Shown here: one piece after another, positions 16,714 through 60,191 of the stretch | How positions within the stretch are numbered: the first letter of the stretch is position 1 | Layout of the letters: the number at the start of each line of letters is the position of its first letter | From: a virus | Taxonomy: Duplodnaviria; Heunggongvirae; Uroviricota; Caudoviricetes | IMG/VR virus record: IMGVR_UViG_2639762987_000002 | Strand: one strand, 5' to 3' | DNA: 64,000 nt | Notes under the pieces: generated by a model | The model's database searches: none | What the model was told of the DNA's origin: nothing | Seen by the model: the letters and a program-made list of their open reading frames with translations, nothing else | Made by a program: the position numbers and the translations under genes

Positions 16714-18054
16714 ATGACCGAACTTTGCCATACAGGACGCGGGCTGTCCGAAGAGTTTGATGAAGATTTCCAGAACAGACTGACGGCATATTTTTGTCGT
16801 GATCACGAGTTTCTTACTCGTGCGGGAGATCTGGTTGTGCCTAGCCAGTTTGCCAATGCGGCCAATGCCATATTGGTTAATATGGTTTCGGGCTATTACC
16901 GTATGTACAAGAGCGCGCCCTCTTCATCTGCAATTCTGGATATGCTTAAGCGTGCGAAACGCGATAAGACTATCCGTGAGGAACTATTCGCCGATGTTGT
17001 TGCTGCGTTTAAGCGCATTCTTGCAGAAAAATTGTCCGATACCTCGTACATGGTTGACCAGGTATCAACCTTCGCAAAAAGTGTAGCGTTTGATGATGCT
17101 CTGATTAAGGCTGCTGAACTGAAAGAGAAAGGCGACTTTCAGGGGGCGATGGCAATCATGGCCAAGGTTCAGCAGATTGGATCGAACGAAGCGACCGGAA
17201 TCTATGACTACTACACCTCCGCAAGTGAGCGATTGAAAGCGCGTGAATATGAGGCTTCAGAGGAGTATGTACCAAACAGTATTACAACTGGACTCCCTCT
17301 TCTCGATAGGTTGCTGTACCAAAAAGGCTGGGCAAAGCGCGAAATGGTGCTCTTCATGGGGTTCGCTAAATCCGGTAAATCGACCGCAATGGGTGAGTTT
17401 TCCATAAACGCAACGCTTGCTGGCTACAATGTTCTGTATCTCTCGCTGGAGGTTCACACCACCATTTTATCCGACCGTTTTGATGCAAGATTGTCGGAGA
17501 CAGAAATGTCCAAGCTGGTGGAACGGCGCGATGAGGTTCATCGTAAGTTGGCAGAGTTGGGAGCCACGAAGGGGATTGGTAGTTTGTGGGTGGTTGAGCG
17601 TCCGTCAGGAAGTATGTCACCGGCAGATCTGGACCGTATGCTTAACAGCATGAAAGCCAACGGCATGGTACCTGACATGGTTGTTGTCGACTACGCAGAT
17701 TTGATGCGTGCCAGTTATGACCTTCGTGATGATCGCGCCAACATTCGTAGTATCTACACCGATTTACGTGCTCTTTATGACAAGCATAACGTTGCTGGGA
17801 TCACGGCATCGCAGACAAACCGTGAAGGTGGCGCGTCAGAAGTTGCCACAATGATGCACGCTGCCGACAACATCGAAAAAGTACGTATTGCTGACCTGGT
17901 AATAACGATCAACAAAACCGAAGAAGAAGAAGCGAAAGGAGAGGCTCGTCTCTACTTTGCCGGTTCACGTAACCAGCAGGGAGGGATCAGCATTCGCGTT
18001 AAACAAAACCTCGAACAAATGCGCTTCATTGAGCGAATCTTAGACGTTACCTAA
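16714..18054 (+). CDS. Replicative DNA helicase (DnaB-like, RecA-fold)
   Basis: 446 aa; Walker A GFAKSGKST, Walker B-like VVVDYADLM; adjacent to primase. Confidence 0.6.
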   Translation: MTELCHTGRGLSEEFDEDFQNRLTAYFCRDHEFLTRAGDLVVPSQFANAANAILVNMVSGYYRMYKSAPSSSAILDMLKRAKRDKTIREELFADVVAAFKRILAEKLSDTSYMVDQVSTFAKSVAFDDALIKAAELKEKGDFQGAMAIMAKVQQIGSNEATGIYDYYTSASERLKAREYEASEEYVPNSITTGLPLLDRLLYQKGWAKREMVLFMGFAKSGKSTAMGEFSINATLAGYNVLYLSLEVHTTILSDRFDARLSETEMSKLVERRDEVHRKLAELGATKGIGSLWVVERPSGSMSPADLDRMLNSMKANGMVPDMVVVDYADLMRASYDLRDDRANIRSIYTDLRALYDKHNVAGITASQTNREGGASEVATMMHAADNIEKVRIADLVITINKTEEEEAKGEARLYFAGSRNQQGGISIRVKQNLEQMRFIERILDVT

Positions 18055-18135
18055 AAAATAAGCGTGGAGAACACCTCCACGCTTGATTCATTGGTGAAAC
18101 AACTTTTCTTTTGCCAAACCACAAAAGAAAAACAC

Positions 18136-19317
18136 ATGAGCCTTTATGTTATATCAACATTTAGGTTGGTCACAATATTGCCTGTTAAAAGTGGAATTAT
18201 CGTGAGCGAGCTGAAAGAGCTAATTACCGAATTAGATTTTGAACAATGGTTGGATACTGAAGGTATCGTTTATCGACGTGGAGGCGTGAGTACTCGCGGT
18301 CGTGAAGTGAATATCAAGGAGTGTCCGGTATGCGGCAGCTCCAACTGGAAGGTATATTTCAATCTGACCAGTGGCGTCGGTAAATGCTTCGCTGGTGATC
18401 ATCCCGAAGAGATTCAGTTCAATAAGCTGGTCTTCCTCAAGCACTACAGCGGCAAATCACGACGACAGTTCGAGGAATATGTGCAGAACGCCCTTCTTTC
18501 CCAGGGGTGGGCACCAAAGAAAGAAGAGCTAGTGCTTGCAAGCACAGTCGAGTTAGAGGAGCCAGTTGCACTCCCTCGTCATTACGAGCTTCCTATAGAT
18601 GGCCGTCTTCCAGACTATCTGGTTGAACGAAACATATCGCCTGAAATGGCAAAGTATTTTGACCTACGATACTGCGTCGAAGGCAAGCACGCCTATGTAG
18701 ATCCGTATACAGATCAGGTTAAAGGACAGATATTCGATATGCGAATACTGATACCGGTTTACGATCTGGATGGGGTAATGAAGACATTTCAGGGACGAGA
18801 CATTACCGGTACAGCAGAACGCCGCTACCTCTTTCCTATGCAACTTCCAGCTTCAGGTAAGTTTCTCTACAACGGCCATAATGCAGTCGGCAAACAGACT
18901 GTAGTTGTCTGTGAGGGGGCGTTCGATGTTATGGGGGTTAAACGAGCTATTTTTGACGAAGAAACATTACGTGATTACGTGGAACCAATAGGAACGTTCG
19001 GGATGCATCTATCTGGTAACACCACTCAGGATGCAGAAGATCAGTTAGGCGCGTTCCTGACGCTCAAGGCGCGTGGATTACGTAATGTGATCATGATGTG
19101 GGATAGTGAAAAGCAAGCTATACGCAACACGATGGCCGCAGCCAGGCGACTGACCAGTATCGGTCTTAATGTCAAAGTTGCGTGTTTGGGTGAGGAAGGA
19201 CTCGACCCGGGCGGTGCAACGCCAGAACAAATTATCAAAGCCTATTATCGGGCAAAACCGTATACCAAACAGTTGGAGTTGCAAAGCAAGGTTTTGGGCA
19301 TTAAGGCTCTATCATAA
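18136..19317 (+). CDS. DNA primase (DnaG-like zinc finger + TOPRIM)
   Basis: ATG 18136 preceded by AAAAGAAAAACACATG; CPVCGSS...GKCFAGDH zinc motif; VVVCEGAFDVMG and MMWDSEKQ TOPRIM-like motifs. Confidence 0.7.
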   Translation: MSLYVISTFRLVTILPVKSGIIVSELKELITELDFEQWLDTEGIVYRRGGVSTRGREVNIKECPVCGSSNWKVYFNLTSGVGKCFAGDHPEEIQFNKLVFLKHYSGKSRRQFEEYVQNALLSQGWAPKKEELVLASTVELEEPVALPRHYELPIDGRLPDYLVERNISPEMAKYFDLRYCVEGKHAYVDPYTDQVKGQIFDMRILIPVYDLDGVMKTFQGRDITGTAERRYLFPMQLPASGKFLYNGHNAVGKQTVVVCEGAFDVMGVKRAIFDEETLRDYVEPIGTFGMHLSGNTTQDAEDQLGAFLTLKARGLRNVIMMWDSEKQAIRNTMAAARRLTSIGLNVKVACLGEEGLDPGGATPEQIIKAYYRAKPYTKQLELQSKVLGIKALS

Positions 19318-19392
19318 CAATCACCTTTAAAATAAGTAGATGATTACTTATCTTTCTGTGAGAATACTTTCATCTGTTAGCTAGGAGTTGGT

Positions 19393-20224: not shown

Positions 20225-20707
20225 ATGGCGGTAGTTGTGAAAGCTGACTTGTCAAAAATCCCCTCTATTTCAGGAAATAATGGTTATTCACTTCGTTGTG
20301 AGGAAGTAAAGATAAACGGTGAGTCGGCATATTGCAGCTACTCCGTTTGCCAGCACACCATTCTTGCCTTCAAAGAAAACCGTCTTCCTCGAACTTCATT
20401 CCAGTCGTGCGCAACCGCTATCAAAGCAGGCAAATGCAAGGCGTTAAAAATGATGGTTGAAGAGATTCGTAAAGGAGAATCTCTGTATTTCGAAGATATG
20501 ACCGTGCTCATTAAGGAGGTTGAAGAACGGAATAAACAAGCCAGAACTTTAAAACGAAAACGTGACAGTGTAACGATTAATGGCATGGTTAAGAAGAGCA
20601 CCACATCACAAACAGCGATCACTGACGTGTATGCGGCGTTGCTTGAAGAAACAACAAAAGAAACACATGAGCAAATCGATCAACATATGGAGGTAAAACA
20701 ACAATGA
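20225..20707 (+). CDS. Hypothetical protein
   Basis: 160 aa; several Cys; overlaps ligase start. Confidence 0.45.
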   Translation: MAVVVKADLSKIPSISGNNGYSLRCEEVKINGESAYCSYSVCQHTILAFKENRLPRTSFQSCATAIKAGKCKALKMMVEEIRKGESLYFEDMTVLIKEVEERNKQARTLKRKRDSVTINGMVKKSTTSQTAITDVYAALLEETTKETHEQIDQHMEVKQQ

Positions 20708-22026
20708 AAAAGTTGATCGCACTTAAGCATAAGCTGGACGAAATGAAAGCTATGGGAACCAATGCAAAAAAAGAGGCATTGGCCAACATGGATGACTTCG
20801 AGCAAAGCATGGTTTCATTGATGCTCAACCCTTTCATCCGTTTTGGGGTAAAGAAATACAAAGTGGCAGAGCCGCTTAGTGAGTCCATCCCAAGTGACGA
20901 AAAAGCCATTGATGTACTGAATAAGCTGGCCTCTCGCGAGCTAACGGGGAACGCAGCAATAGCAGCTGTTGAGTCTATCGTGGCGTCAATGTGCGCCGAT
21001 GGGCAGGACGTGTTCCGTCGTTTCCTCTTAAAAGACCCGAAAGCAGGTGTTGGGATTAGCCTATGCAACAAGGTTTTTGAAAATCCCATTCCGAAATTCG
21101 AGGTGCAGCTGGCGTCACCGTATAAAGAAAAAGGCGACAAATACCCCTTCAAGCCAAATCCTAAAGCAAAATGGCCGATGATTGGCAGTCTTAAGCTCGA
21201 TGGTTTGCGAGTAATTTGCGAGGTTATTGTTGACGAGGAAGAGGTTAACTTCCTTTCTCGTACTGGTAATCCAATCACGTCTCTCGATCACCTAAAGCCA
21301 GCAATGCTCGAATTAGGCAAACTTTCAGGCCACAAACACATCTTCTTCGATGGTGAAGGAACTGCCGGTTCATTTAACCAGTCCGTATCTGCATTGCGCA
21401 AAAAGAACGTGCAGGCAATTGGCGCTATTTATCATGTTTTCGACTTCTTCCTACCGGAATGGCGAGCACAGGCTAAATCCAAAGAGTATGCAAAGACAGG
21501 TATGAAGCTGAAAGAGCGCCTGGCTATGCTGGTGGCGTTGTTCAAAAACGATCGCAGTGAAGGCTACACACAAGACATTCACCTGCATCCGTTCTATATC
21601 ATCCATAGCCACGAAGACTTCATCGAACGCTTCATGAAACGCCTGGACGATAACGAAGAAGGGGAGATGGGCAAAGATCCGAACTCTGTTTACGAGTTTA
21701 AACGTACCCGCAGCTGGTGGAAGTTAAAAGACGAAGATTCAGAAGATGGTGAAATTATCGACTTTGAGCCGGGCGACCCGGACTCTGGTTTTGCCAACAC
21801 ACTTGGAAAAATTGTTATTCGTCTTGAAAACGGCGTCATCGTTCGTGCGAGCGGCATTAAGCATAAATATCTGGATGAGTTCTGGAACAACAAAGAGAAG
21901 TACCGTGGTCGTATTGTCGAGGTTCATTGTCACGAGAAAACACCGGACGGCAGCTTACGCCACCCACGACTGAAATGGCCGCGTTGCTTACGCGATACAG
22001 AAGATCGAATCGGAGATAAAGAATGA
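20704..22026 (+). CDS. ATP-dependent DNA ligase
   Basis: 440 aa; adenylation motif I SLKLDGLR (KxDG). Confidence 0.7.
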   Translation: MKKLIALKHKLDEMKAMGTNAKKEALANMDDFEQSMVSLMLNPFIRFGVKKYKVAEPLSESIPSDEKAIDVLNKLASRELTGNAAIAAVESIVASMCADGQDVFRRFLLKDPKAGVGISLCNKVFENPIPKFEVQLASPYKEKGDKYPFKPNPKAKWPMIGSLKLDGLRVICEVIVDEEEVNFLSRTGNPITSLDHLKPAMLELGKLSGHKHIFFDGEGTAGSFNQSVSALRKKNVQAIGAIYHVFDFFLPEWRAQAKSKEYAKTGMKLKERLAMLVALFKNDRSEGYTQDIHLHPFYIIHSHEDFIERFMKRLDDNEEGEMGKDPNSVYEFKRTRSWWKLKDEDSEDGEIIDFEPGDPDSGFANTLGKIVIRLENGVIVRASGIKHKYLDEFWNNKEKYRGRIVEVHCHEKTPDGSLRHPRLKWPRCLRDTEDRIGDKE

Positions 22027-23039: not shown

Positions 23040-23420
23040 GCAGGAGGGAACATTCATGTTCCCTCCGATGAAGTAACAGAATGGGCGGTTGGTATATTTT
23101 CAACTCCATATGACTCCCGGATTCTTAGCCACTGACCGCCCATCCTGTTACGTCATTTTGTTCAATTATGTCGTTTATACTGGGTTAAAAAGCGGCGACG
23201 TAGCCCGGCTGGTATGGTTAGCCAGCACACAACGTTGAGGCCATTACATTTTTATCAATTCTAAGGTTCTATTCACAGAGATACCGGCGAGCGTTGATAT
23301 GTAACATGTTGGGCAAACATTCAATCGGAGTAGTGGCCTCAACGTTGTGAAGACGGGATTGTTGTGTAGGTTTAACCACTGTTGCCATTGGTGCCTGTTT
23401 TCACAACAAATGATTCCATA
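23040..23420 (+). ncRNA. Candidate structured non-coding RNA region upstream of tRNA cluster
   Basis: No ORF over 60 codons; perfect hairpin 23043-23066; long-range complementarity 23076-23089 with 23135-23148 and 23228-23244 with 23343-23359. Confidence 0.3.
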
Positions 23421-23615
23421 CATCACATTGTATAAATTACAAAGTAGGTGCTGTCCTCAGAAACATCATCTACTTAAAGATTTTGCCTTCTACTATTGAG
23501 CGAAGTCGAAAGCGTCTGGCACTAACGAAAAGTGCAAGTAGCGGTGCGTTTCCTGGCAGAAACTAAACCGTCGCGATTGGCACTGTTGAGTAATAAATAC
23601 TGGCAGTGCTGAATT

Positions 23616-23690
23616 GATGGTGTAGCTCAGCGGTAGAGCAGTTGGCTGTTAACCAACTGGTCGGTGGTTCGAATCCACCCACCATCGCCA
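23616..23690 (+). tRNA. tRNA-Asn (anticodon GTT)
   Basis: Manual fold: acceptor GATGGTG/CACCATC, anticodon loop CTGTTAA, T-loop TTCGAAT, 3' CCA. Confidence 0.75.
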
Positions 23691-23695
23691 ATTTA

Positions 23696-23782
23696 GGGGA
23701 GTTAGTCCGTAGAGGTAGCGGTGTAGACTGTAAATCTACTGTCATGGCGACTCGGGTGGTTCGACTCCATCACTCCCCACCA
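23696..23782 (+). tRNA. tRNA-Tyr (anticodon GTA), long variable arm
   Basis: 87 nt; acceptor GGGGAGT/ACTCCCC, anticodon loop CTGTAAA, T-loop TTCGACT, 3' CCA. Confidence 0.65.
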
Positions 23783-23786
23783 AATT

Positions 23787-23862
23787 GCCGGTTTAGCTCA
23801 GTTGGTAGAGCGCCTGCCTTGTAAGCAGGATGTCAGCGGTTCGAGTCCGTTAACCGGCACCA
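23787..23862 (+). tRNA. tRNA-Thr (anticodon TGT)
   Basis: 76 nt; acceptor GCCGGTT/AACCGGC, D-loop AGTTGGTAGA, anticodon loop CTTGTAA, T-loop TTCGAGT, 3' CCA. Confidence 0.8.
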
Positions 23863-24079
23863 ACACAACAGGAAAGAGCATTGAAAACCGCCGAGACTGC
23901 CCTGTTTTAAGCGTAAGTCCGTGCAAACGTCATACAGTGCTCTTTTCGTTGTGGTTGATGCGCAGACTGATGCGCGGAAAGAAATGCCCCAGCGACACAC
24001 GAGGCGAGTTCACACACTGCAATGCAGTCAGTAGCCGGGGTCGCTAAGCCGGAGATCAGTACCGGTAACCACAACAATT

Positions 24080-24166
24080 GGAGAGTAGGGAGCATGGTGC
24101 TCAAGCGGTCTTGAAAACCGTCCCATTGTGCAAACGATGATGGTTCGATTCCATTACTCTCCGCCA
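24080..24166 (+). tRNA. tRNA-Ser (anticodon TGA), long variable arm
   Basis: 87 nt; acceptor GGAGAGT/ACTCTCC, anticodon loop CTTGAAA, T-loop TTCGATT, 3' CCA. Confidence 0.65.
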
Positions 24167-24320
24167 GACACAGCGTTGAGCGGTTTGGCCTTTTAATCAA
24201 CTCGATTAAGACTCCGCTAACATAAACCAGACCGCTCAACGCTGTGATAGATAATTACGGCAGACGTTCTTAACCATAGCTTGCTAACATCCTAGCAACA
24301 CTTTTTTCAGCGCAAAATTC

Positions 24321-24358: not shown

Positions 24359-25621
24359 TTACTTTGCATAGTCGCCCAATTTTAATATTTCGCGCTTATA
24401 TTCATTAACCATGCTACTGGATTCAGTATAAATTCGATTTAAAAGATTATCGTTATCTTTATTTTCATTTATCTTAATTAGTGCTAATTTATATTCATAG
24501 TCATCAAATGCCACAATTAAATGGTGGCCTGGGATTATATCTTCGTCACTCTTAAAGTATATATCTTCAAGTATGTAATCTAGTTGATTAGATTTTCTTT
24601 TCTCGATGTAATCTTCAGCCATAGCTATTACATCATTCCTGTCATTTAACCTGTTTTTTTCGGAAGGCACATCTTCGTAATGTTGCACGATTGAACAACC
24701 AATAAGGCGTGGGATGTAAACGTCAAAATGAGTAACTCTATCATTCGCGGTTTTAAGTAGTTCCTCAAAGTAGTTTCTTACATGTAAAGGCAACTTCTCA
24801 AAGTAATCATTAATTATAGGAGAACAAGGAGTTTTATAATTCATAAGAACCGACGGTACGAGCTTTGGGTGTCGAAACATCCAGTCCCTTTTAACGTCCG
24901 ATGGAACATAATAACTTTTAATGATATTATCAAAATAATTTATCATTCGAGATTTGAATATTTTGTTGAATCTAAGGTTTATGAATGTATCCAGATAAGG
25001 CATATTTGAATAAGCATCATCAAAAAATATTTCTTCATTGAAGAAATCATATTTATTTAATAAATAAAACAGTTTTTCCGAATTAATATGTTCACAATAA
25101 TCGATTTTTAATCCAAAGATAGCAATGATCAACTTCATCTGAGGTGGGATTTTAAAAATTAATTGTGACACATACGCTCTTTTTTCCTTGAGACATTCCC
25201 CATCAATATAAAATGAACCATCCACATACTCAAATATATTAATAATATGCTTCACATACTGTATTACCTCATGCTGTCTTACCAATGGATAATATAGTCT
25301 ATGTAACTCATCGCTGTTTAAATTAATTTTGTGTTTATCGATAATTTGTTTTGCAAGAAGACATAACTCATCATGTTGATTTAATAAGGAATCAAACCAT
25401 TGTTTAAATGCACTCTTTCGCATTTCGAACAATGATTCAGTTGTTAATTGAAGGGCTGAAAAAGCCGCTTTTGCACTTTTTCTCGCTTCGTAGGCATTCC
25501 ATGCTGTTGCTATAAAAGCAAATGCTGTAGCCAATGTTCCAACAGTTTGACCATTTAAAACAACCCAATCCCAAAAAATGACGGTGAGCAGTAGTATAAT
25601 AATGAAAATTAAAAAAGGCAT
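24359..25621 (-). CDS. AT-rich membrane-anchored protein of unknown function (candidate exclusion/defence gene)
   Basis: 420 aa on minus strand; two N-terminal TM helices; strongly AT-rich by eye relative to flanks; own terminator. Confidence 0.6.
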   Translation of the reverse strand: MPFLIFIIILLLTVIFWDWVVLNGQTVGTLATAFAFIATAWNAYEARKSAKAAFSALQLTTESLFEMRKSAFKQWFDSLLNQHDELCLLAKQIIDKHKINLNSDELHRLYYPLVRQHEVIQYVKHIINIFEYVDGSFYIDGECLKEKRAYVSQLIFKIPPQMKLIIAIFGLKIDYCEHINSEKLFYLLNKYDFFNEEIFFDDAYSNMPYLDTFINLRFNKIFKSRMINYFDNIIKSYYVPSDVKRDWMFRHPKLVPSVLMNYKTPCSPIINDYFEKLPLHVRNYFEELLKTANDRVTHFDVYIPRLIGCSIVQHYEDVPSEKNRLNDRNDVIAMAEDYIEKRKSNQLDYILEDIYFKSDEDIIPGHHLIVAFDDYEYKLALIKINENKDNDNLLNRIYTESSSMVNEYKREILKLGDYAK

Positions 25622-27355: not shown

Positions 27356-27736
27356 AGACTTTATGGCCTCAACAACCTTTTGTGATGCGCCTTTCTCTTT
27401 ACCGAATCGCTCGTTATATGCAGCAAGAACCTGTTTTTCGTCCTCGTTAAGAGGAGCAGTGCCTTCTTTGTATAAAAATGCTGCGAGTTCGGGTTGGCGT
27501 TCTTCCAGCACCATCATCATAAGACGACTTGGCTCAATACCCAGTGCCAGCGCCAGCGGACGAACCTTATCGATAGGCAAAGGAATTTTGCCGCTTTTAA
27601 TTAAAGAAAGGTTGTTGGCGTTTTTATACCCAATTGTTTTGGCTATCTGGGCCTGGCTCATAGGTGAGGATTCAATCAACCCTGCGATAAAAGCAGCGTA
27701 GCGACTTTCTATAAATTCAATCTTGTTATCAGACAT
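27350..27736 (-). CDS. XRE-family helix-turn-helix transcriptional regulator
   Basis: 128 aa on minus strand; HTH segment SQAQIAKTIGYKNANNLSLIKSG; divergent from downstream operon. Confidence 0.6.
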   Translation of the reverse strand: MSDNKIEFIESRYAAFIAGLIESSPMSQAQIAKTIGYKNANNLSLIKSGKIPLPIDKVRPLALALGIEPSRLMMMVLEERQPELAAFLYKEGTAPLNEDEKQVLAAYNERFGKEKGASQKVVEAIKSL

Positions 27737-27767
27737 GGTTACAACCTTTGCGCGTTCAATTCTCTCT

Positions 27768-27781
27768 GGTAAGTGCTTACC
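27768..27781. promoter_or_regulatory. Operator-like palindrome GGTAAGTGCTTACC in divergent promoter region of the XRE regulator
   Basis: Perfect palindrome; same core as the site at 51759-51779. Confidence 0.45.
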
Positions 27782-27987
27782 GATATTACATCAAAGGTTA
27801 GGGTTGTAAAGCTATTATCATTTTTTTCGATAGGCACTTAAAAGACCGGTTAAAGGCCATTGCACGGAGAAAAATTAGCCCAAAATAGGTAAGAAAATTA
27901 ACTTGCATATGATATGAATGTATTCAGTATTGATACAAATTTTAGTAGTATTCCTTACCATAGTATAAGTTAGAATGGATTGATTGA

Positions 27988-31738: not shown

Positions 31739-31740
31739 TC

Positions 31741-35437: not shown

Positions 35438-35444
35438 TCCCATA

Positions 35445-39487: not shown

Positions 39488-39493
39488 ACACAA

Positions 39494-46222: not shown

Positions 46223-46308
46223 GTGAATAATTAAAACAGGCATTTACTACCTTCGGCGCACCTGGTGGGTTATCGTTGCCTCGGCTAACAATCACAGAAA
46301 AATGACAT

Positions 46309-51181: not shown

Positions 51182-51751
51182 ATGAGTAAAAAAATCAGCG
51201 TAGTTGGTGTTGATCCCTCAATGAGCAACTTTGGGCTTGCTGTGGGCACTTTAGACCTTGAGACGGACGAACTTGAGATTCACGGCCTTACTCTTATTGA
51301 GACTAAAGCGGGGAGTAACAAAAAGACCGTTCGTGTGAACAGTGACGATCTGCGCCGAGCCAGTGAAATATGGCGTGTTGCGAAGCCAATCATTGATAAG
51401 GCAAATATGGTTTTTTGTGAGCTACCGGTTGGGAGCCAAAACTCTCGTTCGCAGACGTCTTACGGTATTTGTATCGGTGTACTTGCGTGTGTGGATAAGC
51501 CATTGATCCAGGTTACTCCAAACGAAATCAAGCATTTTGTCGGCAATAAACTTACTACATCGAAAGAAGAGATTATCCAGTGGGCTACGAAAAAACACCC
51601 TAAAGCACCGTGGCTGCGTCGTAAGCAATCTGGACAGGATGTTCTCGTGAACAAAAACGAACATTTGGCTGATGCGGTGGCTGCCATCCATACCGGTATG
51701 CAAACAGATCAGTTCCGCCAGGTGCGCGATGTTCTTAAGTCTCTCATTTGA
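51182..51751 (+). CDS. RuvC-like Holliday junction resolvase
   Basis: 189 aa; N-terminal VVGVDPSMSNFGLAVG, internal FCELPVG, C-terminal DAVAAIHTG resembling RuvC catalytic segments. Confidence 0.6.
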   Translation: MSKKISVVGVDPSMSNFGLAVGTLDLETDELEIHGLTLIETKAGSNKKTVRVNSDDLRRASEIWRVAKPIIDKANMVFCELPVGSQNSRSQTSYGICIGVLACVDKPLIQVTPNEIKHFVGNKLTTSKEEIIQWATKKHPKAPWLRRKQSGQDVLVNKNEHLADAVAAIHTGMQTDQFRQVRDVLKSLI

Positions 51752-51824: not shown

Positions 51825-54140
51825 ATGATAAGCATCGTAAAACGTAACGGCCAAACAGAGCCGTTATCCGAAGAAAAATACAACCGCGTCGTAATGTATG
51901 GCGTAGAAGGCATTCGTGGTGTAAGCGCATCCGCTGTAGCAATGGGAGCTGCGGCCAGCATTTTTGATGGGATGACCACCAGCCAGTTGCATGAGGCTTT
52001 GGTTAAATCTGCCGCTGATTTGATCTCACCAGAAGCACCAAATTACTCACAGGTGGCTGCCCGCCTGAACATTTTTAAAATCCGCAAAGATGCCTTCGGT
52101 CGTTACGACTATCCGAACTTCTACCAACACATTGTCAAGAACGTTAACAAGGGCGTTTATGACAAGGATTTGCTGACACATTATTCGTTTGAAGAGATCG
52201 AAGAACTCGGCAATTACATTAAGCCGAAACGTGACGATCTTTTTGGCTATGCAGCTACGGTGCAGTTGCAAAGCAAATACCTCGTTCAAAACCGTGTTAC
52301 TGGTGAGATTCATGAGGGGCCGCAACATATCTATATGCTGGTAGGCATGTGTCTGTTCCAGAATTGGGAAGACGACTGCGCTGGCAAAACACGTATGGAG
52401 ATGGTCAAAGGTTTCTATGACGTTACAAGTACGTTCAAACTGTCTCTGCCCACACCTATCATGGCCGGCGTCCGTACTCCAACCCGTCAGTTCTCCAGTT
52501 GTGTGCTGATTGAGTCTGGCGATAGTCTGAAAGGGATTAGTGCAGCTTCAGCCGCAATTATCGACTACGTTTCACGTCGTGCTGGAATTGGTATTGGTAT
52601 TGGCCGTATCCGTGCGCTGGGCAGCGAGATCCGCAATGGTGAAGCCACCCATACCGGAGTTATTCCATTCCTGAAGCATTTCCAGACGGCTGTTAAATCT
52701 TGTTCGCAAGGTGGTGTTCGTGGTGGCGCAGCAACAGCGTTTTACCCGATCTGGCATCTTGAAGTTGAAAGTCTGCTGGTGGTGAAAAATAACCGTGGTA
52801 TTGATGAAAACCGCGTTCGCCATCTTGATTACGGCGTCATGAGTAACCGTCTAATGTACCGTCGACTCGTCAGAAGCGAGAACATCACTCTGTTCAGCCC
52901 GCATGATGTGCCTGATATGTACGAAGCCTTCTTCACAGACCAGGAGCTGTTTGAAAAGCTGTACCATAAATACGAAGCCGATGATTCAATTCGCAAGAAG
53001 TCAGTACCTGCCATTGAGCTGTTCTCATCTCTGATGCAGGAACGAGCGTCCACGGGCCGAATTTATATTGCGAACGTCGATCATATTAATGAGCATGGCG
53101 CTTTCATTCCTGCTCTTGCACCTGTCCGCCAGTCAAACCTGTGTATGGAGATCACCCTACCCACCCGTCCACTGGCATTTACCGACGACCCGAACGGTGA
53201 GATCGCGCTATGCACTTTATCCGCTTTTAACCTCGGAGCCATCCGTTCACTGGAGTCTCTTAAAGAGGTGGCGTTCTATGCCGTTGCTGCACTGGATTCG
53301 TTACTGGATTATCAAGACTATCCGATGGAGGCAGCCGAAGTGCCTGCCAAAGCTCGTCGTAGCTTGGGAATTGGTGTAACCAACTTTGCTTATTACCTGG
53401 CAAAGAATGGCGTTCGTTATTCTGATACCGCTGGCAATAAACTGGTGCATGAAACGTTCGAAGCTATCCAGTATTACCTTCTTGATGCCAGCTGCCGACT
53501 TGCTGAAGCAAAAGGTGAGTGTGACTGGTTTGAGCAGACCAAATACGCAATTGGTCAGTTGCCGATCGACCATTACCGTTCTTCATTAGACGAAAGTGGC
53601 GAAACCAACTTTGAGTTAAAGATGCCGTGGGAAGAACTGCGTGAACGTATTGCAAAATACGGCCTTCGCAACTCCACACTGACGGCACAAATGCCATGCG
53701 AGACTTCCAGCCAGATCACTAATTCCACCAACGGCATCGAACCGCCTCGTGGCCCGGTGTCGGTGAAATCTTCTAAGGACGGCATCGTTAAGATGGTCGT
53801 GCCTGAGTTTGAAAAACTGAAGGAACAGTATGAATACCTGTGGGATATGCCGGACAACCGCGGCTATCTGACAAAGGTGGCGATCATCCAGAAGTTCTTT
53901 GACCAGGCTATTTCAGCCAATACCAACTATGACCCTTCTCGCTTTGAAGGCGATAAAGTCCCAATGATGACGCTACTGTCAGATTTGCTTCTCGCCTACA
54001 AGATGGGAGTTAAAACGCTTTACTACCACAACACCAGAGATGGTGCAGGAAAGCGTGATGACGACGAACCGCAGAATCCACTGGCGCAAGCTGTAGCCGT
54101 CGAGCCAGAAGATGAGTGCGACGGAGCCTGCAAAATCTGA
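51825..54140 (+). CDS. nrdA: Ribonucleotide reductase class Ia large subunit
   Basis: 771 aa; N-terminal ATP-cone-like VKRNGQTEPL; active-site SNLCMEITLPT and PCETSSQI. Confidence 0.9.
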   Translation: MISIVKRNGQTEPLSEEKYNRVVMYGVEGIRGVSASAVAMGAAASIFDGMTTSQLHEALVKSAADLISPEAPNYSQVAARLNIFKIRKDAFGRYDYPNFYQHIVKNVNKGVYDKDLLTHYSFEEIEELGNYIKPKRDDLFGYAATVQLQSKYLVQNRVTGEIHEGPQHIYMLVGMCLFQNWEDDCAGKTRMEMVKGFYDVTSTFKLSLPTPIMAGVRTPTRQFSSCVLIESGDSLKGISAASAAIIDYVSRRAGIGIGIGRIRALGSEIRNGEATHTGVIPFLKHFQTAVKSCSQGGVRGGAATAFYPIWHLEVESLLVVKNNRGIDENRVRHLDYGVMSNRLMYRRLVRSENITLFSPHDVPDMYEAFFTDQELFEKLYHKYEADDSIRKKSVPAIELFSSLMQERASTGRIYIANVDHINEHGAFIPALAPVRQSNLCMEITLPTRPLAFTDDPNGEIALCTLSAFNLGAIRSLESLKEVAFYAVAALDSLLDYQDYPMEAAEVPAKARRSLGIGVTNFAYYLAKNGVRYSDTAGNKLVHETFEAIQYYLLDASCRLAEAKGECDWFEQTKYAIGQLPIDHYRSSLDESGETNFELKMPWEELRERIAKYGLRNSTLTAQMPCETSSQITNSTNGIEPPRGPVSVKSSKDGIVKMVVPEFEKLKEQYEYLWDMPDNRGYLTKVAIIQKFFDQAISANTNYDPSRFEGDKVPMMTLLSDLLLAYKMGVKTLYYHNTRDGAGKRDDDEPQNPLAQAVAVEPEDECDGACKI

Positions 54141-54202
54141 CATATGGTGGGGGATATCCCCACCTTCTCTTTGATTTGTAAGCCTTGTTTAAACACATAA
54201 GA

Positions 54203-54215
54203 TAACAACTTGTTT
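54203..54215. promoter_or_regulatory. Palindrome tAACAAcTTGTTT upstream of nrdB
   Basis: Member of the AAACAA-N-TTGTTT family. Confidence 0.4.
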
Positions 54216-54246
54216 AAACGCACCAAAAAAGAAAAAGGAAAAACAC

Positions 54247-55389
54247 ATGTCATATTCAACGTTCCGTTTGGGTGCTAATGATGCAACCAAAGAGCCTATG
54301 TTCCTCGGACAATCTGTCAACGTGGCACGTTACGATCAGCAAAAATACCGTGATTTTGAAAAGTTGATTGAACGTCAATTGTCTTTCTTCTGGCGGCCGG
54401 AAGAAGTTGATATTTCGAGCGATCGTATCGACTTCAACACGAAGCTGCGGGACCACGAACGTCACATTTTTCTGAGCAATCTCCGTTATCAAACGTTACT
54501 CGATTCAGTTCAGGGACGTAGTCCAAATGCAACGCTGCTGCCGCTTATCTCTATTCCTGAACTGGAAACGTGGGTTGAAACGTGGTCTTTCTCTGAGACT
54601 ATCCATAGCCGCAGCTACACCCACATTATTCGTGGCATGGTGGACGATCCGAGCATTGTTTTTGACGGTATTGTTACGGATGAAGAAATCATCAACCGAG
54701 CGATCAGTATCTCTGCTGAATATGACAGGCTTTATGGGATGACCTGCGAGCGCCAGTCGTTAGGTGAGAAGGAATTTGAGCGTCTGTACGTAAATGAATA
54801 TGGCTGGGAGCCATACCCTTTGCATCGTCAGCTTTTCCGCACGTTGGTGTCCATTAATGCTCTTGAGGCGATCCGTTTCTACGTAAGTTTTGCATGTACG
54901 TTTGCCTTTGGTGAACGGAAGTTGCTTGAGGGTAACACCAAAATTATGCGCTTTATTGCCCGTGATGAAGCTCTGCATTGCGAAGGAACTGAACGCATGA
55001 TCCGCTTCATGCGTACCGGTCGCGAAGGTTTATTGTGGAAAGAGATTGCTGCTGATGAAGAAAACGTCATTTACGACACCATGAAATCAGTCGCCGAACA
55101 AGAAATGAACTGGGCAGACTATCTCTTCAAAGACGGTTCGATGATTGGTTTAAACGCGGATATTCTCAAAACCTATGTAAAATACCGCACCAATCTGGCT
55201 ATGAATCGTCTTGGCCTGAAGTCTTTATTTCCAGAAGTTACCACTGATCCGCTGGTCTGGATGAACAAGTGGTTGTTAACCGACACACTGCAAATTGCAC
55301 CACAAGAGGCAGAGCAAAGCACATATCTGGTAGGTCAGATCGATTCTACCGTGGATAAGGCTTCTCTAAGCCAGTTTGCAGACCTGTAA
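54247..55389 (+). CDS. nrdB: Ribonucleotide reductase class Ia small subunit
   Basis: 380 aa; di-iron/tyrosyl-radical protein features; directly downstream of nrdA; start context AAAAAGGAAAAACACATG. Confidence 0.9.
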
Positions 55390-55466
55390 ACCGATACAAA
55401 GCATTATGTGGCCTAGCAACGCTGGGCCACAATGGATCACAAGAATTAAGAAGGAACAAAACTAGC

Positions 55467-56336
55467 ATGAACTTTACCAAACTGACTGACCACCTGAAAC
55501 TTGCCACCGATCGACTCATTGGATTTAAGCCAGAACCATATGAATTGCATGAAGGCCATGGTGTAGCCACTGAAAGTATTTACAAGATGGTCGATCAGTT
55601 TCATGAACTCTTCCAGCATCCGAGACGCGTTATGCCGACACCAGAGCTGCTTCGTCTCCGTGCAAGCCTGATTCATGAAGAAGCTGTAGTGGAAGGTATT
55701 CCAGCTGCAATGAATGGGGATATTGAGCAACTGCTGGATGCAATGGCCGACTTTTTATACGTTGGTGTTGGTACGATGGTCGCCATCAAAGGTGGTATTT
55801 CTACCGGCATGACCTATTACACGCAGGAACAGAGCATTGATCGCTTTATGCAGACAATTTTTGTGCCTGGTAACACTGTTTTCGATGATATGGCAATGCC
55901 ATTTCAGGAAGCTCGTGAGGCGTCATGTATGCTCGAAGAGCTGGCAGATAAACTTGAGAAGAAGACTGTTAAGGATTCTGAGCTGATTCAGGAACTGCGC
56001 CGTGTAATGAACAAAATCTATGTGGCGTGCATGATGACTTATCGACTGGCTGATTTTCTCGGTATCAATGTCGTCGAGCTGGTTGGCGAAATTCATCGGT
56101 CCAACATGACAAAATTATGGCCTGCAGATGCCGAAGAGCGTCGCCATGCTGTGGCCAACTGCAAATACGACTCTTCTGACCTGGGATTTCGCCATGCTGA
56201 TGGCACCGATAAGATGATCGGTTTTCGAATTTCCGATGGAAAGATTCTGAAGTCTCCAACCTATAGTGATGTCGATTTATCCTCCTTTGTTGAGCAAGCT
56301 AAAGCCTCAGCAATGTACGGAATGATCAAAAAATAA
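55467..56336 (+). CDS. Possible MazG-like nucleoside triphosphate pyrophosphohydrolase
   Basis: 289 aa; helical EExxE/D-rich segment LIHEEAVVEGIPAAMNGDIEQLLDAMADFLYV; assignment tentative. Confidence 0.4.
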   Translation: MNFTKLTDHLKLATDRLIGFKPEPYELHEGHGVATESIYKMVDQFHELFQHPRRVMPTPELLRLRASLIHEEAVVEGIPAAMNGDIEQLLDAMADFLYVGVGTMVAIKGGISTGMTYYTQEQSIDRFMQTIFVPGNTVFDDMAMPFQEAREASCMLEELADKLEKKTVKDSELIQELRRVMNKIYVACMMTYRLADFLGINVVELVGEIHRSNMTKLWPADAEERRHAVANCKYDSSDLGFRHADGTDKMIGFRISDGKILKSPTYSDVDLSSFVEQAKASAMYGMIKK

Positions 56337-56405
56337 TTGTAGGTAGTTATCTATCTGTGTATATTGCGCTGGCGCGTTAAATTTCTGAAACAACTATTCG
56401 TTTTT

Positions 56406-56431
56406 GGTGGCCTATGGCCACCATTTTTTTA
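56406..56431 (+). terminator. Rho-independent terminator
   Basis: TGGTGGCC-tat-GGCCACCA followed by TTTTTTT. Confidence 0.8.
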
Positions 56432-56507
56432 TCTGTCTGGTCTTGTTCTCTCAATAAATGTAAACTCACGCAATGAATAAGTGGTTACTTATCTTTGTGA
56501 GGTTTTT

Positions 56508-57611
56508 GTGTCACTCCTTTTGAATCGTGAGCATACGAACGGTCAGGTAACAAACGCATCGTATGCAAAAGTTATTGAGACGGTGCTTAAAAGCGGCGTG
56601 CAGGCTGATGATCGCACAGGCACTGGTACTTTAAGCACCTGCTACGTTCCCTCTTACTACATGCTTACTGGTGGGACTGTGCCGCTTATTTCTGGAAAGG
56701 CGGTAAATCTTAAGCCACTGCTTGTCGAACTTGAGTGGTATCTGAAAGGCACGGGCAACATCCAATTTCTCAAGGATAACGGCGTTAAGATTTGGGATGC
56801 ATGGGCCGATGAGAATGGCGATTTGGGGCCGGTTTACGGTAAGCAGTGGCGTCGATGGGAAGATACCCGCATCGTGAGCCATAGTGAATATCTGAGCAAG
56901 ATCGCTACTTTCCGTGAACGCGGGTACAAAGTCGAGGGATACCTGGGTATCAGTGAAGATCGCGTAGTGCTGTCCCGTGAAATCGATCAGCTACAGCGTA
57001 TTGTCGATACACTGCGCACGAACCCTACCGATCGTCGCATCATGCTTAACGCATGGAACGTAGGCGAGCTTGAGGATATGAAACTGCCACCTTGCCACTT
57101 TGTCTTCTCTTTGTGGAGTCGTGAACTGGATTTTGAAACCCGTTTAACGATGGCAACTGACATTGGTCTACAACACAGTCGCCTCGGTTATGAGTCTATC
57201 TACACCAAGATGCTATACGATCTGGAGATGGACGGCAGTGTTACTGAAACTGAACTGGATGAACTTGGAATCCCCAAACGCATCCTCAACTCCTGCCTCG
57301 TACAGCGTAGCGTAGACACTTTTGTTGGTATGCCATTCAATATTGCTGGCTATGGCATTCTCACTCATTTTCTCGCGAAGATTACGGGTCACATGGCCGG
57401 TGCATTTGTGCATTTTGGCTTTGACGTGCATTTGTACAACAACCACATGGAAGGTGTGTGTGAGCTAATGCAACGACAGGCTCCAGAGCATTCAGATCCG
57501 GTCGTTATATTCCCTAATGAATGGTCTGAGCTGGATGATTTCAAATGGGACGAGATTCTTATTCTTGGCTATGCCCCTCTACCGTGGATCAAGGTTCCAG
57601 TGGCGGTGTGA
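56508..57611 (+). CDS. thyA: Thymidylate synthase (ThyA)
   Basis: DRTGTGTLS near N-terminus and catalytic MLNAWNVGELEDMKLPPCHFVFSLW; start uncertain (GTG 56508 after GAGG; ORF track begins GTG 56481). Confidence 0.85.
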   Translation: MSLLLNREHTNGQVTNASYAKVIETVLKSGVQADDRTGTGTLSTCYVPSYYMLTGGTVPLISGKAVNLKPLLVELEWYLKGTGNIQFLKDNGVKIWDAWADENGDLGPVYGKQWRRWEDTRIVSHSEYLSKIATFRERGYKVEGYLGISEDRVVLSREIDQLQRIVDTLRTNPTDRRIMLNAWNVGELEDMKLPPCHFVFSLWSRELDFETRLTMATDIGLQHSRLGYESIYTKMLYDLEMDGSVTETELDELGIPKRILNSCLVQRSVDTFVGMPFNIAGYGILTHFLAKITGHMAGAFVHFGFDVHLYNNHMEGVCELMQRQAPEHSDPVVIFPNEWSELDDFKWDEILILGYAPLPWIKVPVAV

Positions 57612-57612
57612 T

Positions 57613-58026
57613 ATGGCAAGAGGTATGTATGTCTTATGCGAAATTGAAGGTGTGCTGGCAAATACCAGCCATCGTAAATCTGTATCTGACTCGGATGCAG
57701 GCCAATTCATTGCCGGTGATGAACTCATTTTCCCCACCAGCCGTATGTTGCGTGGTTTTGCTCGCTCAGGGGCTGAAGTGGTGCTTATCAGTAGCCGCTC
57801 TGAAACTCTTGAAGCGCCCACTAAACGATGGCTGAAAGATTTTGGTGTTGATTACGACTGGCTTCACCTCGTACCGAATAGCACTAGTTATGAGAAGCAT
57901 ATTAAGCGCACATTAGCGGAGCATAAAGGCGATCTGCTTATCGCTGCGCTGGTGCACGATCCTCGACTCCGTGCCGCTTTAGCTGACTCACATCATAGAC
58001 CGGTCATCTATGAGGTGAGCAAATGA
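57613..58026 (+). CDS. Hypothetical protein
   Basis: ATG 57613 two nt after thyA stop; ORF track begins 57517 inside thyA; no motif recognised. Confidence 0.4.
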   Translation: MARGMYVLCEIEGVLANTSHRKSVSDSDAGQFIAGDELIFPTSRMLRGFARSGAEVVLISSRSETLEAPTKRWLKDFGVDYDWLHLVPNSTSYEKHIKRTLAEHKGDLLIAALVHDPRLRAALADSHHRPVIYEVSK

Positions 58027-58499
58027 AGATGATAGCTGCTGTTGGCCGTAACTATGAGATCGGCATAGCGAACGAACTGCCCTGGCGTTGTTCTACCGAT
58101 CTGAAGCTATTTAAGAGACTCACCAAAAACGCCACTGTCGTTATGGGGCGTAAAACGATGGAAAGTCTCAAACGCCCTCTTCCAGAGCGTCATAACCTCG
58201 TTTTGACGCGCTCTCATGGCTTTGTACCAAATGGATTCTACCCTGCTGGTGTGGATGATGTGTTGCGATTACCAGAGCCTGTGTGGGTGATTGGCGGGGA
58301 ACAAATTTACTCGCTATTCATGCCGCATGTTGAAGAGATTTGGCTCTCCCACATCGGCGTTGATGTGCCAAACGCCGATGCATTCTTCCCGGCAAGCATG
58401 ATGCGTAATTTAGGCTTTGTGCCTGTTGAAACAGCTTATACCCAACGAGCCAGCGAGGAAGAGCCTGGCTTTTCGCAGATCGTATACAGAAGGTCGTAA
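58023..58499 (+). CDS. folA: Dihydrofolate reductase
   Basis: 158 aa; MIAAVGRNYEIGIANELPWR and VVMGRKTMESL match DHFR N-terminal motifs; ATGA overlap with upstream gene. Confidence 0.85.
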   Translation: MKMIAAVGRNYEIGIANELPWRCSTDLKLFKRLTKNATVVMGRKTMESLKRPLPERHNLVLTRSHGFVPNGFYPAGVDDVLRLPEPVWVIGGEQIYSLFMPHVEEIWLSHIGVDVPNADAFFPASMMRNLGFVPVETAYTQRASEEEPGFSQIVYRRS

Positions 58500-59143
58500 T
58501 GGATTACCGGATTGGGATCACTGGTGCTCAGGGCAGTGGGAAAACAACCCTGGCTAAATATATCGACAAACATTACGGAATCCCTTACGTGGATGCTGGT
58601 GTCGGAAGTTTGATGAGCCGCCTCGGTGTTCGAGTAGGTGATTCTATGCCTCTATATGAGCGGCTTCAGATTCAAATGGAAATAGCAAAGCATATAGAGC
58701 TACTTACGCGTGGTGCTGAAGGCTTTGTTATCGATCGCACACCTGCTGATGTTATGGCCTACACGTTGGATTTGGTCGGCCATACAAATGAAGATCGGTG
58801 TATTGAGTTAGCCCTCGATATCGAAAAGTTTTGCCACAAAACTGCTATTTCAAACTTTAACGCCATTGCTGGCCTACGCCCGGGGGTCGCTCTCTCAGAG
58901 CGAGATTACTTGCGGTCACAACGAGCATCATTAGACCGTCTGTATGTCGCTCGTATTGATGCGTTGATGTGCGGGGAACTGACAAAAATTCACCTGCATC
59001 CGCAAAGGGGAGATCTGCAAACCTTCGTCGTTTCCAACCGGTATCGCACAGTTGAAGCAAGAGCCAGATCAGTGATGAGAATGCTAGATAACGCGGTAGA
59101 AAAGATAGAAAACCGGTTCTGTGGCCGAGTGACCGTTCATTAG
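58499..59143 (+). CDS. P-loop nucleotide kinase (possible dNMP kinase)
   Basis: 214 aa; Walker A GITGAQGSGKTT at N-terminus; sits in nucleotide-metabolism cluster. Confidence 0.45.
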   Translation: MDYRIGITGAQGSGKTTLAKYIDKHYGIPYVDAGVGSLMSRLGVRVGDSMPLYERLQIQMEIAKHIELLTRGAEGFVIDRTPADVMAYTLDLVGHTNEDRCIELALDIEKFCHKTAISNFNAIAGLRPGVALSERDYLRSQRASLDRLYVARIDALMCGELTKIHLHPQRGDLQTFVVSNRYRTVEARARSVMRMLDNAVEKIENRFCGRVTVH

Positions 59144-59204
59144 AAATTGTTCGCCTCTTCGACATTGCGACAATAAAACTCTCAAAATGGGTTAAGGATA
59201 AAAA

Positions 59205-59624
59205 ATGTTTAGTGAAATGTTGCTTGAAGATGAACTGGATCGGAAAACAACAGAGGCTTTGATTCGTGTAGCGGACGAACATTCCCGGTCGCTTATGAGC
59301 GATCGAGAGGCTCGTCTGGCTATTCGTGCCATATTCGAAACTGCGCAGGGGCTTGTTGGTACACAAGTGGGTGAAGCCATTAACATCGCCATGTCTCAGT
59401 TCAGTGAAGGCAGTAAAAAGTCTCTGTTTCCTATGCATTTGATGCTGGCTGGTGGCACGGTGCTTTATATCTCTGTTTGTCTGGATAGCAACCAAATCAA
59501 TATTCTCAACACTGTGTCAGGTAAGTGGAAAGATCCGATTGTCTGTGAAACCAGTGAAGAAACTTTGAAAAAAGCGGCTCAATTTGTACGTAGCGCACTA
59601 CTTAAGGGCGCTAAGAAGTTGTAA
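59205..59624 (+). CDS. Hypothetical protein
   Basis: 139 aa; helical. Confidence 0.5.
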   Translation: MFSEMLLEDELDRKTTEALIRVADEHSRSLMSDREARLAIRAIFETAQGLVGTQVGEAINIAMSQFSEGSKKSLFPMHLMLAGGTVLYISVCLDSNQINILNTVSGKWKDPIVCETSEETLKKAAQFVRSALLKGAKKL

Positions 59625-59633
59625 GGAGTTCTG

Positions 59634-60191
59634 ATGACAACGATTGTTGCAGGCATCGATATCGAGTCTACGGGACTGGATTTCCTTGCTGGTCATAAAA
59701 TTATTGAAATCGCAATTACCCGCTATGAACTGGAGACACAGAGACATATTGATAGTCTGGAGATGCGTTTTAACCCTCGCAGAAACATAGATCCGAAAGC
59801 TCAAGCCGTTCATGGCATTTCATTGGAACAGCTCGCAGCTGAACCTTTGTTGTCAAATCATGCCAGCGAAATTGGCGCTTATATGGGGGCATGTAGTGTG
59901 TGGGTTGCTCATAACGGCGAAGCATTTGATATACCATTTATTCGACACGAGTTTTCAGGGTATGGAGTAAGACTGCCAGAAGTTCCTGTTATAGATACTA
60001 TGTTATCGGGATTGTGGGCCACAGAAGACGGCAAACGTCCCCGCCTTGAAGAGTTGGCCTTCTCTCTTGGCTATATATACGATCATGCCAAAGCACATAG
60101 TGCCTTATATGACACAAACTTAATGATGCAATGCTTCTTTAAGGCACGTAATAAGTACGGATTTTTTAAATTACCCTCTGAAATTGTGTAA
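59634..60191 (+). CDS. DnaQ-like 3'-5' exonuclease (DEDDh)
   Basis: 185 aa; Exo I GIDIESTGL, Exo II HNGEAFD, Exo III HSALYDT. Confidence 0.75.
   Translation: MTTIVAGIDIESTGLDFLAGHKIIEIAITRYELETQRHIDSLEMRFNPRRNIDPKAQAVHGISLEQLAAEPLLSNHASEIGAYMGACSVWVAHNGEAFDIPFIRHEFSGYGVRLPEVPVIDTMLSGLWATEDGKRPRLEELAFSLGYIYDHAKAHSALYDTNLMMQCFFKARNKYGFFKLPSEIV

Follow-up and report, generated by a model that had tools for sequence, protein, structure and literature searches.

Does a phage-plasmid that carries both a plasmid initiator and a long set of replication genes copy its genome without its host? This question is raised by the 64,000-nucleotide (nt) stretch of Caudoviricetes DNA in IMG/VR record IMGVR_UViG_2639762987_000002 (hereafter the window, by which we mean the whole stretch that was analysed). 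A preliminary description of this DNA had proposed a self-contained, host-independent replisome for lytic growth next to a RepA iteron system used in the plasmid state. Our analysis points with good confidence to another answer, namely that the element probably holds two replication systems of different origin, a RepA-based plasmid mode and a lytic mode based on phage-encoded enzymes, and that neither of them would be host-independent.

The 10-kb stretch around the open reading frame (ORF) of 1172 amino acids (aa) that encodes the polymerase is 99.5% identical to the Escherichia coli plasmid pAVS0968-B (NZ_CP124394.1), 96-98% identical to the Escherichia phages CMS-2020a, PhiR41_1 and Cyrano, and 80% identical to Salmonella phage SSU5, and the gene order of the window agrees with that of the annotated relatives. 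Because both the nucleotide identity and the gene order match, we assign the window to an SSU5/pHCM2-type phage-plasmid of E. coli, of whose genome it would make up about 60%. Matches to the replication module were found in 785 PLSDB plasmids from Klebsiella, Escherichia, Enterobacter, Yersinia and Salmonella. According to Pfeifer et al. (2021, PMC7969092), no set of related phage-plasmids is larger than the SSU5_pHCM2 group, which belongs to the SSU5 supergroup. Cyrano, a prophage of strain LF82, is present at about 5.5 copies per chromosome, and its virion production rises 39-fold with ciprofloxacin (PMC9928086).

Hidden Markov model scans with the Pfam, NCBIfam and PHROG libraries, on which the gene identities given here are based, confirmed that all eight replication functions named in the preliminary description are present in the window. 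The range given for them, 16714-60191, holds for the listed genes with the exception of RNase HI, which lies outside it at 62851-63525 (plus strand, as are all genes below unless stated otherwise; PF00075, 152.5 bits); its start is likely near 62935, and rnhA measures 591 nt in the relative. The first of the enzymes is a DnaB-family replicative helicase (16714-18054; PF03796 DnaB_C, 49.9 bits against a cut-off of 27, 3.6e-13; TIGR03600 phage_DnaB, 4.9e-14), followed by a DnaG-type primase with putative zinc ribbon and TOPRIM domain (18064-19317; phrog_47 'DNA primase', 8e-64; TIGR01391, 7.8e-9). The Pfam scores of the primase fall 0.6-1.1 bits short of the cut-offs (DNAG_N, 25.4 against 26; Toprim_2, 21 against 22.1), the CPVC...C zinc-ribbon motif (CxxC...C) is present, and the true start is probably near 18202, matching the annotation in a relative. 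An ATP-dependent DNA ligase is encoded at 20704-22026 (PF01068, 49.4 bits) and a 5'-3' exonuclease (FEN) of the T4 RNase H/Pol I 5' nuclease type at 37150-38145 (5_3_exonuc_N, 87 bits, and 5_3_exonuc, 46 bits, both over cut-off).

Two of the named proteins required some correction. What had been called an SSB does bind single-stranded DNA (ssDNA) by family assignment, but the family is that of T4 gp32 and not the bacterial OB-type SSB (36112-37140; PF08804, 224.7 bits). Similarly, the separate DnaQ-like proofreader is a DEDDh 3'-5' exonuclease of 185 aa that consists of the epsilon-like domain only (59634-60191; RNase_T, 77.5 bits). Among PDB structures it comes closest to those of E. coli epsilon (5e-11; the alignment covers epsilon residues 11-176 and shows the DxE, NxxxFD and HxxxxD motifs), and it scores under the epsilon equivalog cut-off (NF004316, 70 against 196). 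The protein stops just past the exonuclease domain, and both the C-terminal segment that binds the PHP domain of alpha and a QxxLF clamp motif are absent from it. In addition, the window encodes a block for deoxynucleoside triphosphate (dNTP) supply, in which Pfam recognises NrdA, NrdB, a MazG-like protein, ThyA, a 169-aa ORF, DHFR and a P-loop kinase-like protein (51825-59143); the 169-aa ORF has a sub-threshold PNKP-phosphatase-like match (HAD_PNKP, 22.3 against a cut-off of 27.6).

At the centre of the question stands the polymerase itself, a C-family DNA polymerase of the DnaE superfamily with a non-canonical C-terminus (31919-35437; 1172 aa; PHP, DNA_pol3_alpha with 248 bits, finger and HHH_6). 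Domain searches could have moved this protein out of the DnaE family; instead it scores 633 against a cut-off of 434 with TIGR00594, it aligns to the alpha subunits of E. coli (E = 4e-109) and Taq (8e-122), and all of the 41 family members keep the catalytic aspartates D418, D420 and D568 unchanged. The description of the enzyme as a cellular-type DnaE thus stands for the superfamily core but not for the protein as a whole, which is not DnaE1, since its OB and tau-binding domains are replaced and its score is too low for the DnaE equivalog (NF004226, 679 against a cut-off of 1002). The HxH motif of the PHP domain is lost, and beyond about aa 955 the protein no longer aligns to alpha of E. coli or Taq. 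Calling a DnaE replicase unusual for such an element was an overstatement, given that 1328 of 50,697 phage records, many siphoviruses included, have a DnaE-type polymerase and that the module itself occurs in the 785 plasmids mentioned above. In phages, DnaE-type polymerases are a minority but established feature.

In place of the OB and tau-binding domains, aa 985-1172 of the polymerase (34871-35434) form a domain with the fold of a family-4 uracil-DNA glycosylase (UDG; TIGR00758, 1.3e-8). A profile built from 26 homologues of the domain matches PDB entry 4zbx at 1.9e-21, and an AF2 model (pLDDT 94.4, pTM 0.91) superposes in Foldseek with TM0511, 1ui0 and 4zby at TM scores of 0.75-0.82. The domain remains under the family cut-off (TIGR00758, 34.7 against 125), and its catalytic motifs, GEAPG and the His of HPS, are not kept, the window protein reading LDNANG and NPN. 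At the motif-B His position, 40 of 41 family members have N, S or T and none has His; the Fe-S CxxC is absent from the window polymerase and retained in 17/41 relatives. Since the motif-B His is lost and the window protein has no Fe-S CxxC, a canonical glycosylase activity of the domain appears doubtful from its sequence. An exhaustive HMMER search for the UDG-type C-terminal domain returned 143 clusters at 50% identity, of which 43, all >1000 aa long (40 of them about 1080-1240 aa), carry it C-terminally.

The linker between the (HhH)2 region and the UDG-like domain contains a candidate clamp-binding motif, QAELM (aa 970-974; 34826-34840). It belongs to a family motif, DQxEL[ML]PG, in which Q is found in 37/41 and L in 33/41 members and which resembles the QADMF of E. 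coli alpha. Whether QAELM corresponds to QADMF in position is ambiguous, as pairwise alignment sets it against 897-RAALM and not against 920-QADMF, so that we keep it as a candidate only.

The polymerase gene lies in a block of genes that is conserved far beyond the SSU5 group. In the window, the block begins with a putative helix-turn-helix repressor (27350-27736, minus strand; weak HTH_19 match, and a putative repressor in Cyrano), which is divergent from an operon running from CobT to RecA. This operon encodes a CobT-like VWA protein (28299-30407; CobT_C, 279 bits; CobT, 95 bits), a CobS/MoxR-like AAA+ ATPase (30503-31738; AAA_5, 57.4 bits), the polymerase, a UvsY-like recombination mediator (35563-35994), gp32, FEN and a RecA/UvsX-type recombinase (38414-39487; PF00154, 145.8 bits). 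The assignment of the mediator is weak (phrog_231, 1e-4; annotated UvsY in Cyrano), and its stronger match is to a family of unknown function (phrog_2058, 3e-69). A bidirectional, intrinsic-terminator-like hairpin ends the string (39492-39512; a 9-bp stem with 6 GC pairs, then a T-run). With the exception of this strong hairpin after recA, promoter and terminator consensus scans of the window gave nothing above chance. Further downstream follow the nucleases SbcD (47208-48293) and SbcC (48523-50439), which as a pair are the analogues of gp47/gp46 in T4 (Metallophos; AAA_23, SMC_N and SbcC_Walker_B), and a RuvC-like Holliday-junction resolvase (51182-51751; phrog_159, 8e-57).

DnaE-UDG has 137 distant relatives in IMG/VR, many of them on contigs of 95-119 kb. 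For the 38 distant loci of at least 18 kb we counted co-occurring genes within 10 kb to either side of DnaE-UDG, and took the gene order from 12 listed loci. CobT, CobS, DnaE, UvsY, FEN and RecA co-occur in 38/38 loci, gp32 and SbcD in 37/38 each, and SbcC in 33/38; a homologue of the repressor is found in 29/38 and keeps its divergent position where the order was listed. The resulting order is repressor (minus), CobT, CobS, a Cys-rich ORF of about 200 aa, DnaE(UDG), UvsY, gp32, FEN and RecA, then SbcD, SbcC and RuvC, with CobT and CobS directly upstream of DnaE-UDG in most of the 12. Within the same distance, DnaB and primase were each found in only 0-1 of the 38 loci, and RepA was absent near the block. 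The CobT/CobS-like pair is annotated as serving cobalamin or porphyrin biosynthesis. Because it holds a fixed position in a replication and recombination operon, a role unrelated to cobalamin is suggested, and no CobN partner for the pair was seen. As separate observations, the extra ORF between CobS and DnaE in distant loci (for example L086, L087, L089, L094 and L095) is about 190-210 aa long with an N-terminal GCFGS..C..C....C, and some distant loci also carry a sigma-factor-like ORF between cobS and dnaE; the window has a spacing of 180 bp there.

This setting of the polymerase bears on the rival explanation that survives best, in which DnaE-UDG is a repair, uracil-handling or recombination polymerase that acts with gp32, UvsX and UvsY at D-loops, while bulk lytic synthesis is left to host Pol III as in P1. 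Such a role would suit an enzyme with neither tau-binding nor OB domain, with a PHP site that has degenerated and with a DNA-repair fold fused to it, and that is always found among recombination genes and not by helicase and primase; P1, the closest plasmid-prophage paradigm, does use host Pol III. However, invariant catalytic aspartates throughout the family speak against it, as does the loss of the UDG motif-B His in all 41 members, which argues against a canonical glycosylase role. The element also brings its own helicase, primase, proofreading-type exonuclease and large dNTP block, which is typical of phages that use their own polymerase. On balance, we consider this rival unlikely.

The same block invites a bolder reading, which we put forward only as a speculation of low probability: the string CobT-CobS-DnaE(UDG)-UvsY-gp32-FEN-RecA could be an uncharacterised C-family replicase system of a broad group of phages of about 100 kb, in which the UDG fold stands in for the OB and tau-binding domains and the AAA+/VWA pair is a replication accessory. 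If this were true, the UDG fold might, for example, sense the template or uracil or offer a platform for docking, the AAA+/VWA pair might act in assembly or processivity, and lytic replication would be independent of the host clamp loader after all.

An argument against host independence is the set of components that were looked for and not found. Pfam and NCBIfam scans of the window gave no match for a beta clamp (DNA_pol3_beta or gp45-like) or a clamp loader (RFC, tau or delta). Likewise, when the ORFs in all six frames of the window and of the 99.5%-identical plasmid were searched by phmmer for E. coli DnaN and DnaX-gamma, no match came up at E<=10. The gene tables of the whole 114.8-kb relative list no clamp, loader or topoisomerase; since PLSDB tables are incomplete, this annotation is supporting evidence only. 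The window scans also revealed no topoisomerase, helicase loader or lytic initiator, and for the unassigned ORFs at 15921, 19393, 20225, 50429, 59205 and 60350 Pfam, PHROG and NCBIfam gave no match to a clamp, loader or initiator. The first of these (15921-16670), an all-helical protein encoded directly upstream of the helicase, is an unproven candidate for a helicase loader or initiator. As no clamp or loader is encoded, the phage polymerase would either borrow the beta clamp and clamp loader of the host or work without a clamp.

The preliminary claim of a self-contained, host-independent replisome is therefore not supported. As a rival explanation it would have a complete phage replisome copy the genome in the lytic cycle without any host replication proteins, and it can draw on the fact that the element encodes helicase, primase, polymerase, exonuclease, ssDNA-binding protein, FEN, ligase, RNase HI and dNTP synthesis, and that a related lysogen keeps the replisome genes silent (see below). 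Against this stand the missing clamp and clamp loader, the lack of a recognised topoisomerase, helicase loader and lytic initiator, a DnaE without OB and tau-binding domains and an exonuclease without the alpha-binding tail, and we regard host independence as quite improbable.

The second system is the plasmid replicon, for which the description of a RepA iteron system was borne out by a Rep3_N-type RepA and 16 iterons. The iteron-binding initiator is encoded by repA on the minus strand (44893-45987; Rep3_N, 37.1 bits against a cut-off of 22.4); the mechanically called ORF extends to 46107, and the ATG at 45987 comes after the upstream iterons. RepA is 43.5% identical to P1 RepA (E = 2e-64) and had no match in a PDB sequence search. 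A pattern search with up to two mismatches found 16 copies of the iteron core CCGCTGACAGCATA in the window where chance would give 0.4, and none of 100 shuffles reached 16 matches. Downstream of repA, where P1 has incA, lie twelve iterons (44362-44892); upstream of it, where P1 has incC/oriR, lie the other four and a degenerate copy (46009-46108). The upstream set adjoins an origin flank (46150-46230) made up of a GATC cluster followed by the tandem DnaA-box-like TTATTCACATATCCACA. With 6 GATC within 56 bp (46150-46208), where about 0.33 are expected per 80 bp, this is the densest such cluster in the window. The DnaA-box-like TTATTCACA and ATATCCACA (46214-46230) have one mismatch each, and window-wide box counts are not above chance. 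In its anatomy, the replicon can thus be described as a P1 oriR-type layout, with incC and incA iterons on either side of repA.

RepA of the window is only 48% identical to its counterparts in Cyrano and SSU5, and 85% identical to those of Klebsiella members. Since its neighbouring phage genes match those of Cyrano at 96-98% identity, the RepA (incompatibility) replicon appears to have been swapped within a conserved phage backbone. Such an exchange fits the picture of conserved phage genes and variable plasmid genes drawn by Pfeifer et al. (PMC7969092). Together with the absence of RepA near the distant modules, it also argues that the two replication systems are modular and separable.

Consistent with this separation, published RNA-seq of the Cyrano lysogen in LF82 (normalised counts with a floor of about 5; PMC9928086, S1 Table) shows repA (133), the repressor gene (96) and parA (50) to be expressed. 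The replication genes stand at 10.1 for DnaE, 21 for the helicase, 10.6 for the primase, 5.9 for the ligase, 9.1 for gp32, 6.6 for FEN and 10.2 for RecA, and the virion genes at 7.4 for the major capsid protein and 8.4 for the terminase (PMC9928086). In the plasmid state of this related lysogen, most phage replication genes are therefore as silent as the virion genes; the helicase reaches about two to three times the virion-gene level. The proposal of two replication modes, with RepA serving the plasmid state, is thus plausible and fits both the P1-like oriR and the lysogen RNA-seq; the part that did not hold is the host independence of the lytic mode. The remaining rival, that phage helicase, primase and DnaE also serve plasmid replication from the RepA origin as one replisome under two regulators, is the least probable of all: a helicase slightly above its neighbours and a copy number of about 5.5, more than that of P1, would agree with it, but DnaE, primase, gp32 and FEN remain at virion-gene background in the lysogen, lineages exchange RepA alleles but keep a phage module that is 96-98% identical, and distant relatives have no RepA near it.

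The use of each machinery at its origin, and the source of the polymerase's processivity, we infer as follows. In the plasmid mode, RepA would bind the roughly five iterons upstream of its own gene, next to the GATC-rich stretch and the DnaA boxes, and would be titrated by the 12 downstream iterons; by analogy with P1, it would recruit host DnaA, DnaB/DnaC, primase and Pol III holoenzyme. In the lytic mode, loss of the divergently encoded repressor would allow expression of the long rightward gene strings. These may supply the DnaB-type helicase, the DnaG-type primase, the ligase and the DnaE-UDG polymerase, a T4-like toolkit for recombination-dependent replication (UvsY-like protein, gp32, FEN, UvsX/RecA, SbcCD and RuvC-like resolvase), and the dNTP-synthesis enzymes, stand-alone epsilon-like exonuclease, Dam and RNase HI. 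The polymerase would then use the beta clamp and clamp loader of its host, perhaps by way of the conserved QAELM-type motif, or run clampless.

Several points weigh against this account of two host-dependent systems. The RNA-seq comes from Cyrano, whose RepA is the 48%-identical one, and the searchable literature gave no replication experiment on any SSU5-type element. The clamp-binding reading of QAELM is, as judged from alignment, ambiguous, and several ORFs of 140-270 aa carry no assignment, so a very divergent clamp may be conceivable. In addition, a lytic origin and its initiator were not identified, and repeat scans of the window outside oriR gave no tandem or iteron arrays. The only candidate from these scans outside oriR is an AT-rich, near-perfect palindrome of 55 bp (15759-15813; CCTGTTTCTGTATATATAAATAATAAGTAACTTATTAAATATATACGGAAGCAGG). 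It lies between a divergent ORF (14880-15647, minus strand) and the helicase operon, and may serve as an operator or, possibly, as an origin for lytic replication.

Among clinical Enterobacteriaceae, phage-plasmids of the SSU5 type are very common, as the 785 matching plasmid records show, and they can carry resistance genes; for this reason, the host functions needed for their maintenance and for the lytic burst are of practical value. The element, its gene content and the DnaE-UDG architecture are already known in the literature, and host independence fails on the missing clamp and clamp loader. The residual novelty is mechanistic and concerns a DnaE without clamp, OB or tau-binding domain, a degenerate UDG fold and a syntenic CobS/CobT-like pair.

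Some further features of the window touch these subjects less directly. A Dam-type N6-adenine methyltransferase (61343-61936; PF05869, 131.8 bits) could methylate the GATC cluster of oriR. The thymidylate synthase of the dNTP block (56481-57611) is ThyA (PF00303, 263 bits), and the homologous Cyrano gene is annotated ThyX; its PF00303 match is split into two stretches, suggesting an insertion. Four tRNA genes (Asn, Tyr, Thr and Ser) lie at 23616-24166, where Cyrano has only three, and the cluster is interleaved with related inverted repeats of 20-27 nt (CACAACGTTGAGGCC and CACAGCGTTGAGCGG) with flanks at 23068-24246. A 420-aa ORF (24359-25621, minus strand) lies in an island where the GC content drops to 36%, from about 46% otherwise. 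It has a match to phrog_18168, a family without known function, but none in Pfam; as Cyrano has other genes at that position, it is probably a variable cargo or defence gene. In the tail-fibre region, an ORF of 1174 aa (6047-9571) contains a 120-bp unit in three tandem copies (8765-9119; 73% matches). Beyond the region that matches the window, the closest plasmid, NZ_CP124394.1, carries host-like apbC and metG (methionine--tRNA ligase) cargo at 72587-75878.

Compared with known systems, the window is closest to SSU5, pHCM2 and Cyrano, with which it shares the order of tail genes followed by helicase, primase, DnaE, gp32, RecA, RepA, SbcCD and ribonucleotide reductase, and from two of which, SSU5 and Cyrano, it differs in the RepA allele. 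Unlike Cyrano, it has no HicAB between dnaE and uvsY (35437-35563 in the window), where Cyrano carries this toxin-antitoxin pair as an insertion (Cyrano locus 27275-28123), and it has the different ORF at 24359-25621. Furthermore, recA is annotated with 2340 nt in Cyrano and has 1074 nt in the window (38414-39487); the longer Cyrano gene (locus 31228-33567) suggests an intein or mobile insertion in that gene.

The plasmid mode resembles that of phage P1 in its homologous RepA, in iterons on both sides of repA and in the GATC cluster and DnaA boxes by the upstream set, and the two elements share a plasmid-prophage lifestyle with a separate, repressor-controlled lytic programme. P1 oriR works with host DnaA, DnaB/C, primase, Pol III and chaperones, and P1 has a separate lytic replication from oriL/RepL; lacking a polymerase gene, it relies on the Pol III of its host. 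The window differs from P1 in the sequence and number of its iterons (4-5 and 12), and no RepL/oriL homologue was identified in it. The lytic mode, in turn, recalls the recombination-dependent replication of T4, with gp32, UvsX (RecA), a weakly assigned UvsY, gp46/47 (SbcCD), a FEN-type RNase H and an ATP-dependent ligase clustered around the polymerase. However, this polymerase is of the C family whereas T4 gp43 is of the B family, the window has no gp45 clamp or gp44/62 loader, and its helicase is of the DnaB type, with no gp59-like loader demonstrated in the window.

Finally, DnaE-UDG shares the PHP-palm-thumb-fingers-(HhH)2 core and the catalytic Asp triad with cellular DnaE1, the Pol III alpha of E. 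coli, but differs from it in having a UDG fold for the OB and tau-binding C-terminus, in the loss of the PHP HxH motif and in that the element encodes no cognate clamp, tau or epsilon-tail partner. The same UDG-fused architecture had already been noted as a DnaE variant ('DnaEX') in Yersinia pestis and Salmonella enterica strains (Timinskas et al. 2014, PMC3919608), whose elements, unnamed in that paper, are presumably of the pMT1/pHCM2 type. There it was treated as an extra bacterial polymerase, whereas here it is the conserved polymerase of a broad set of phages of about 100 kb, held in fixed synteny.

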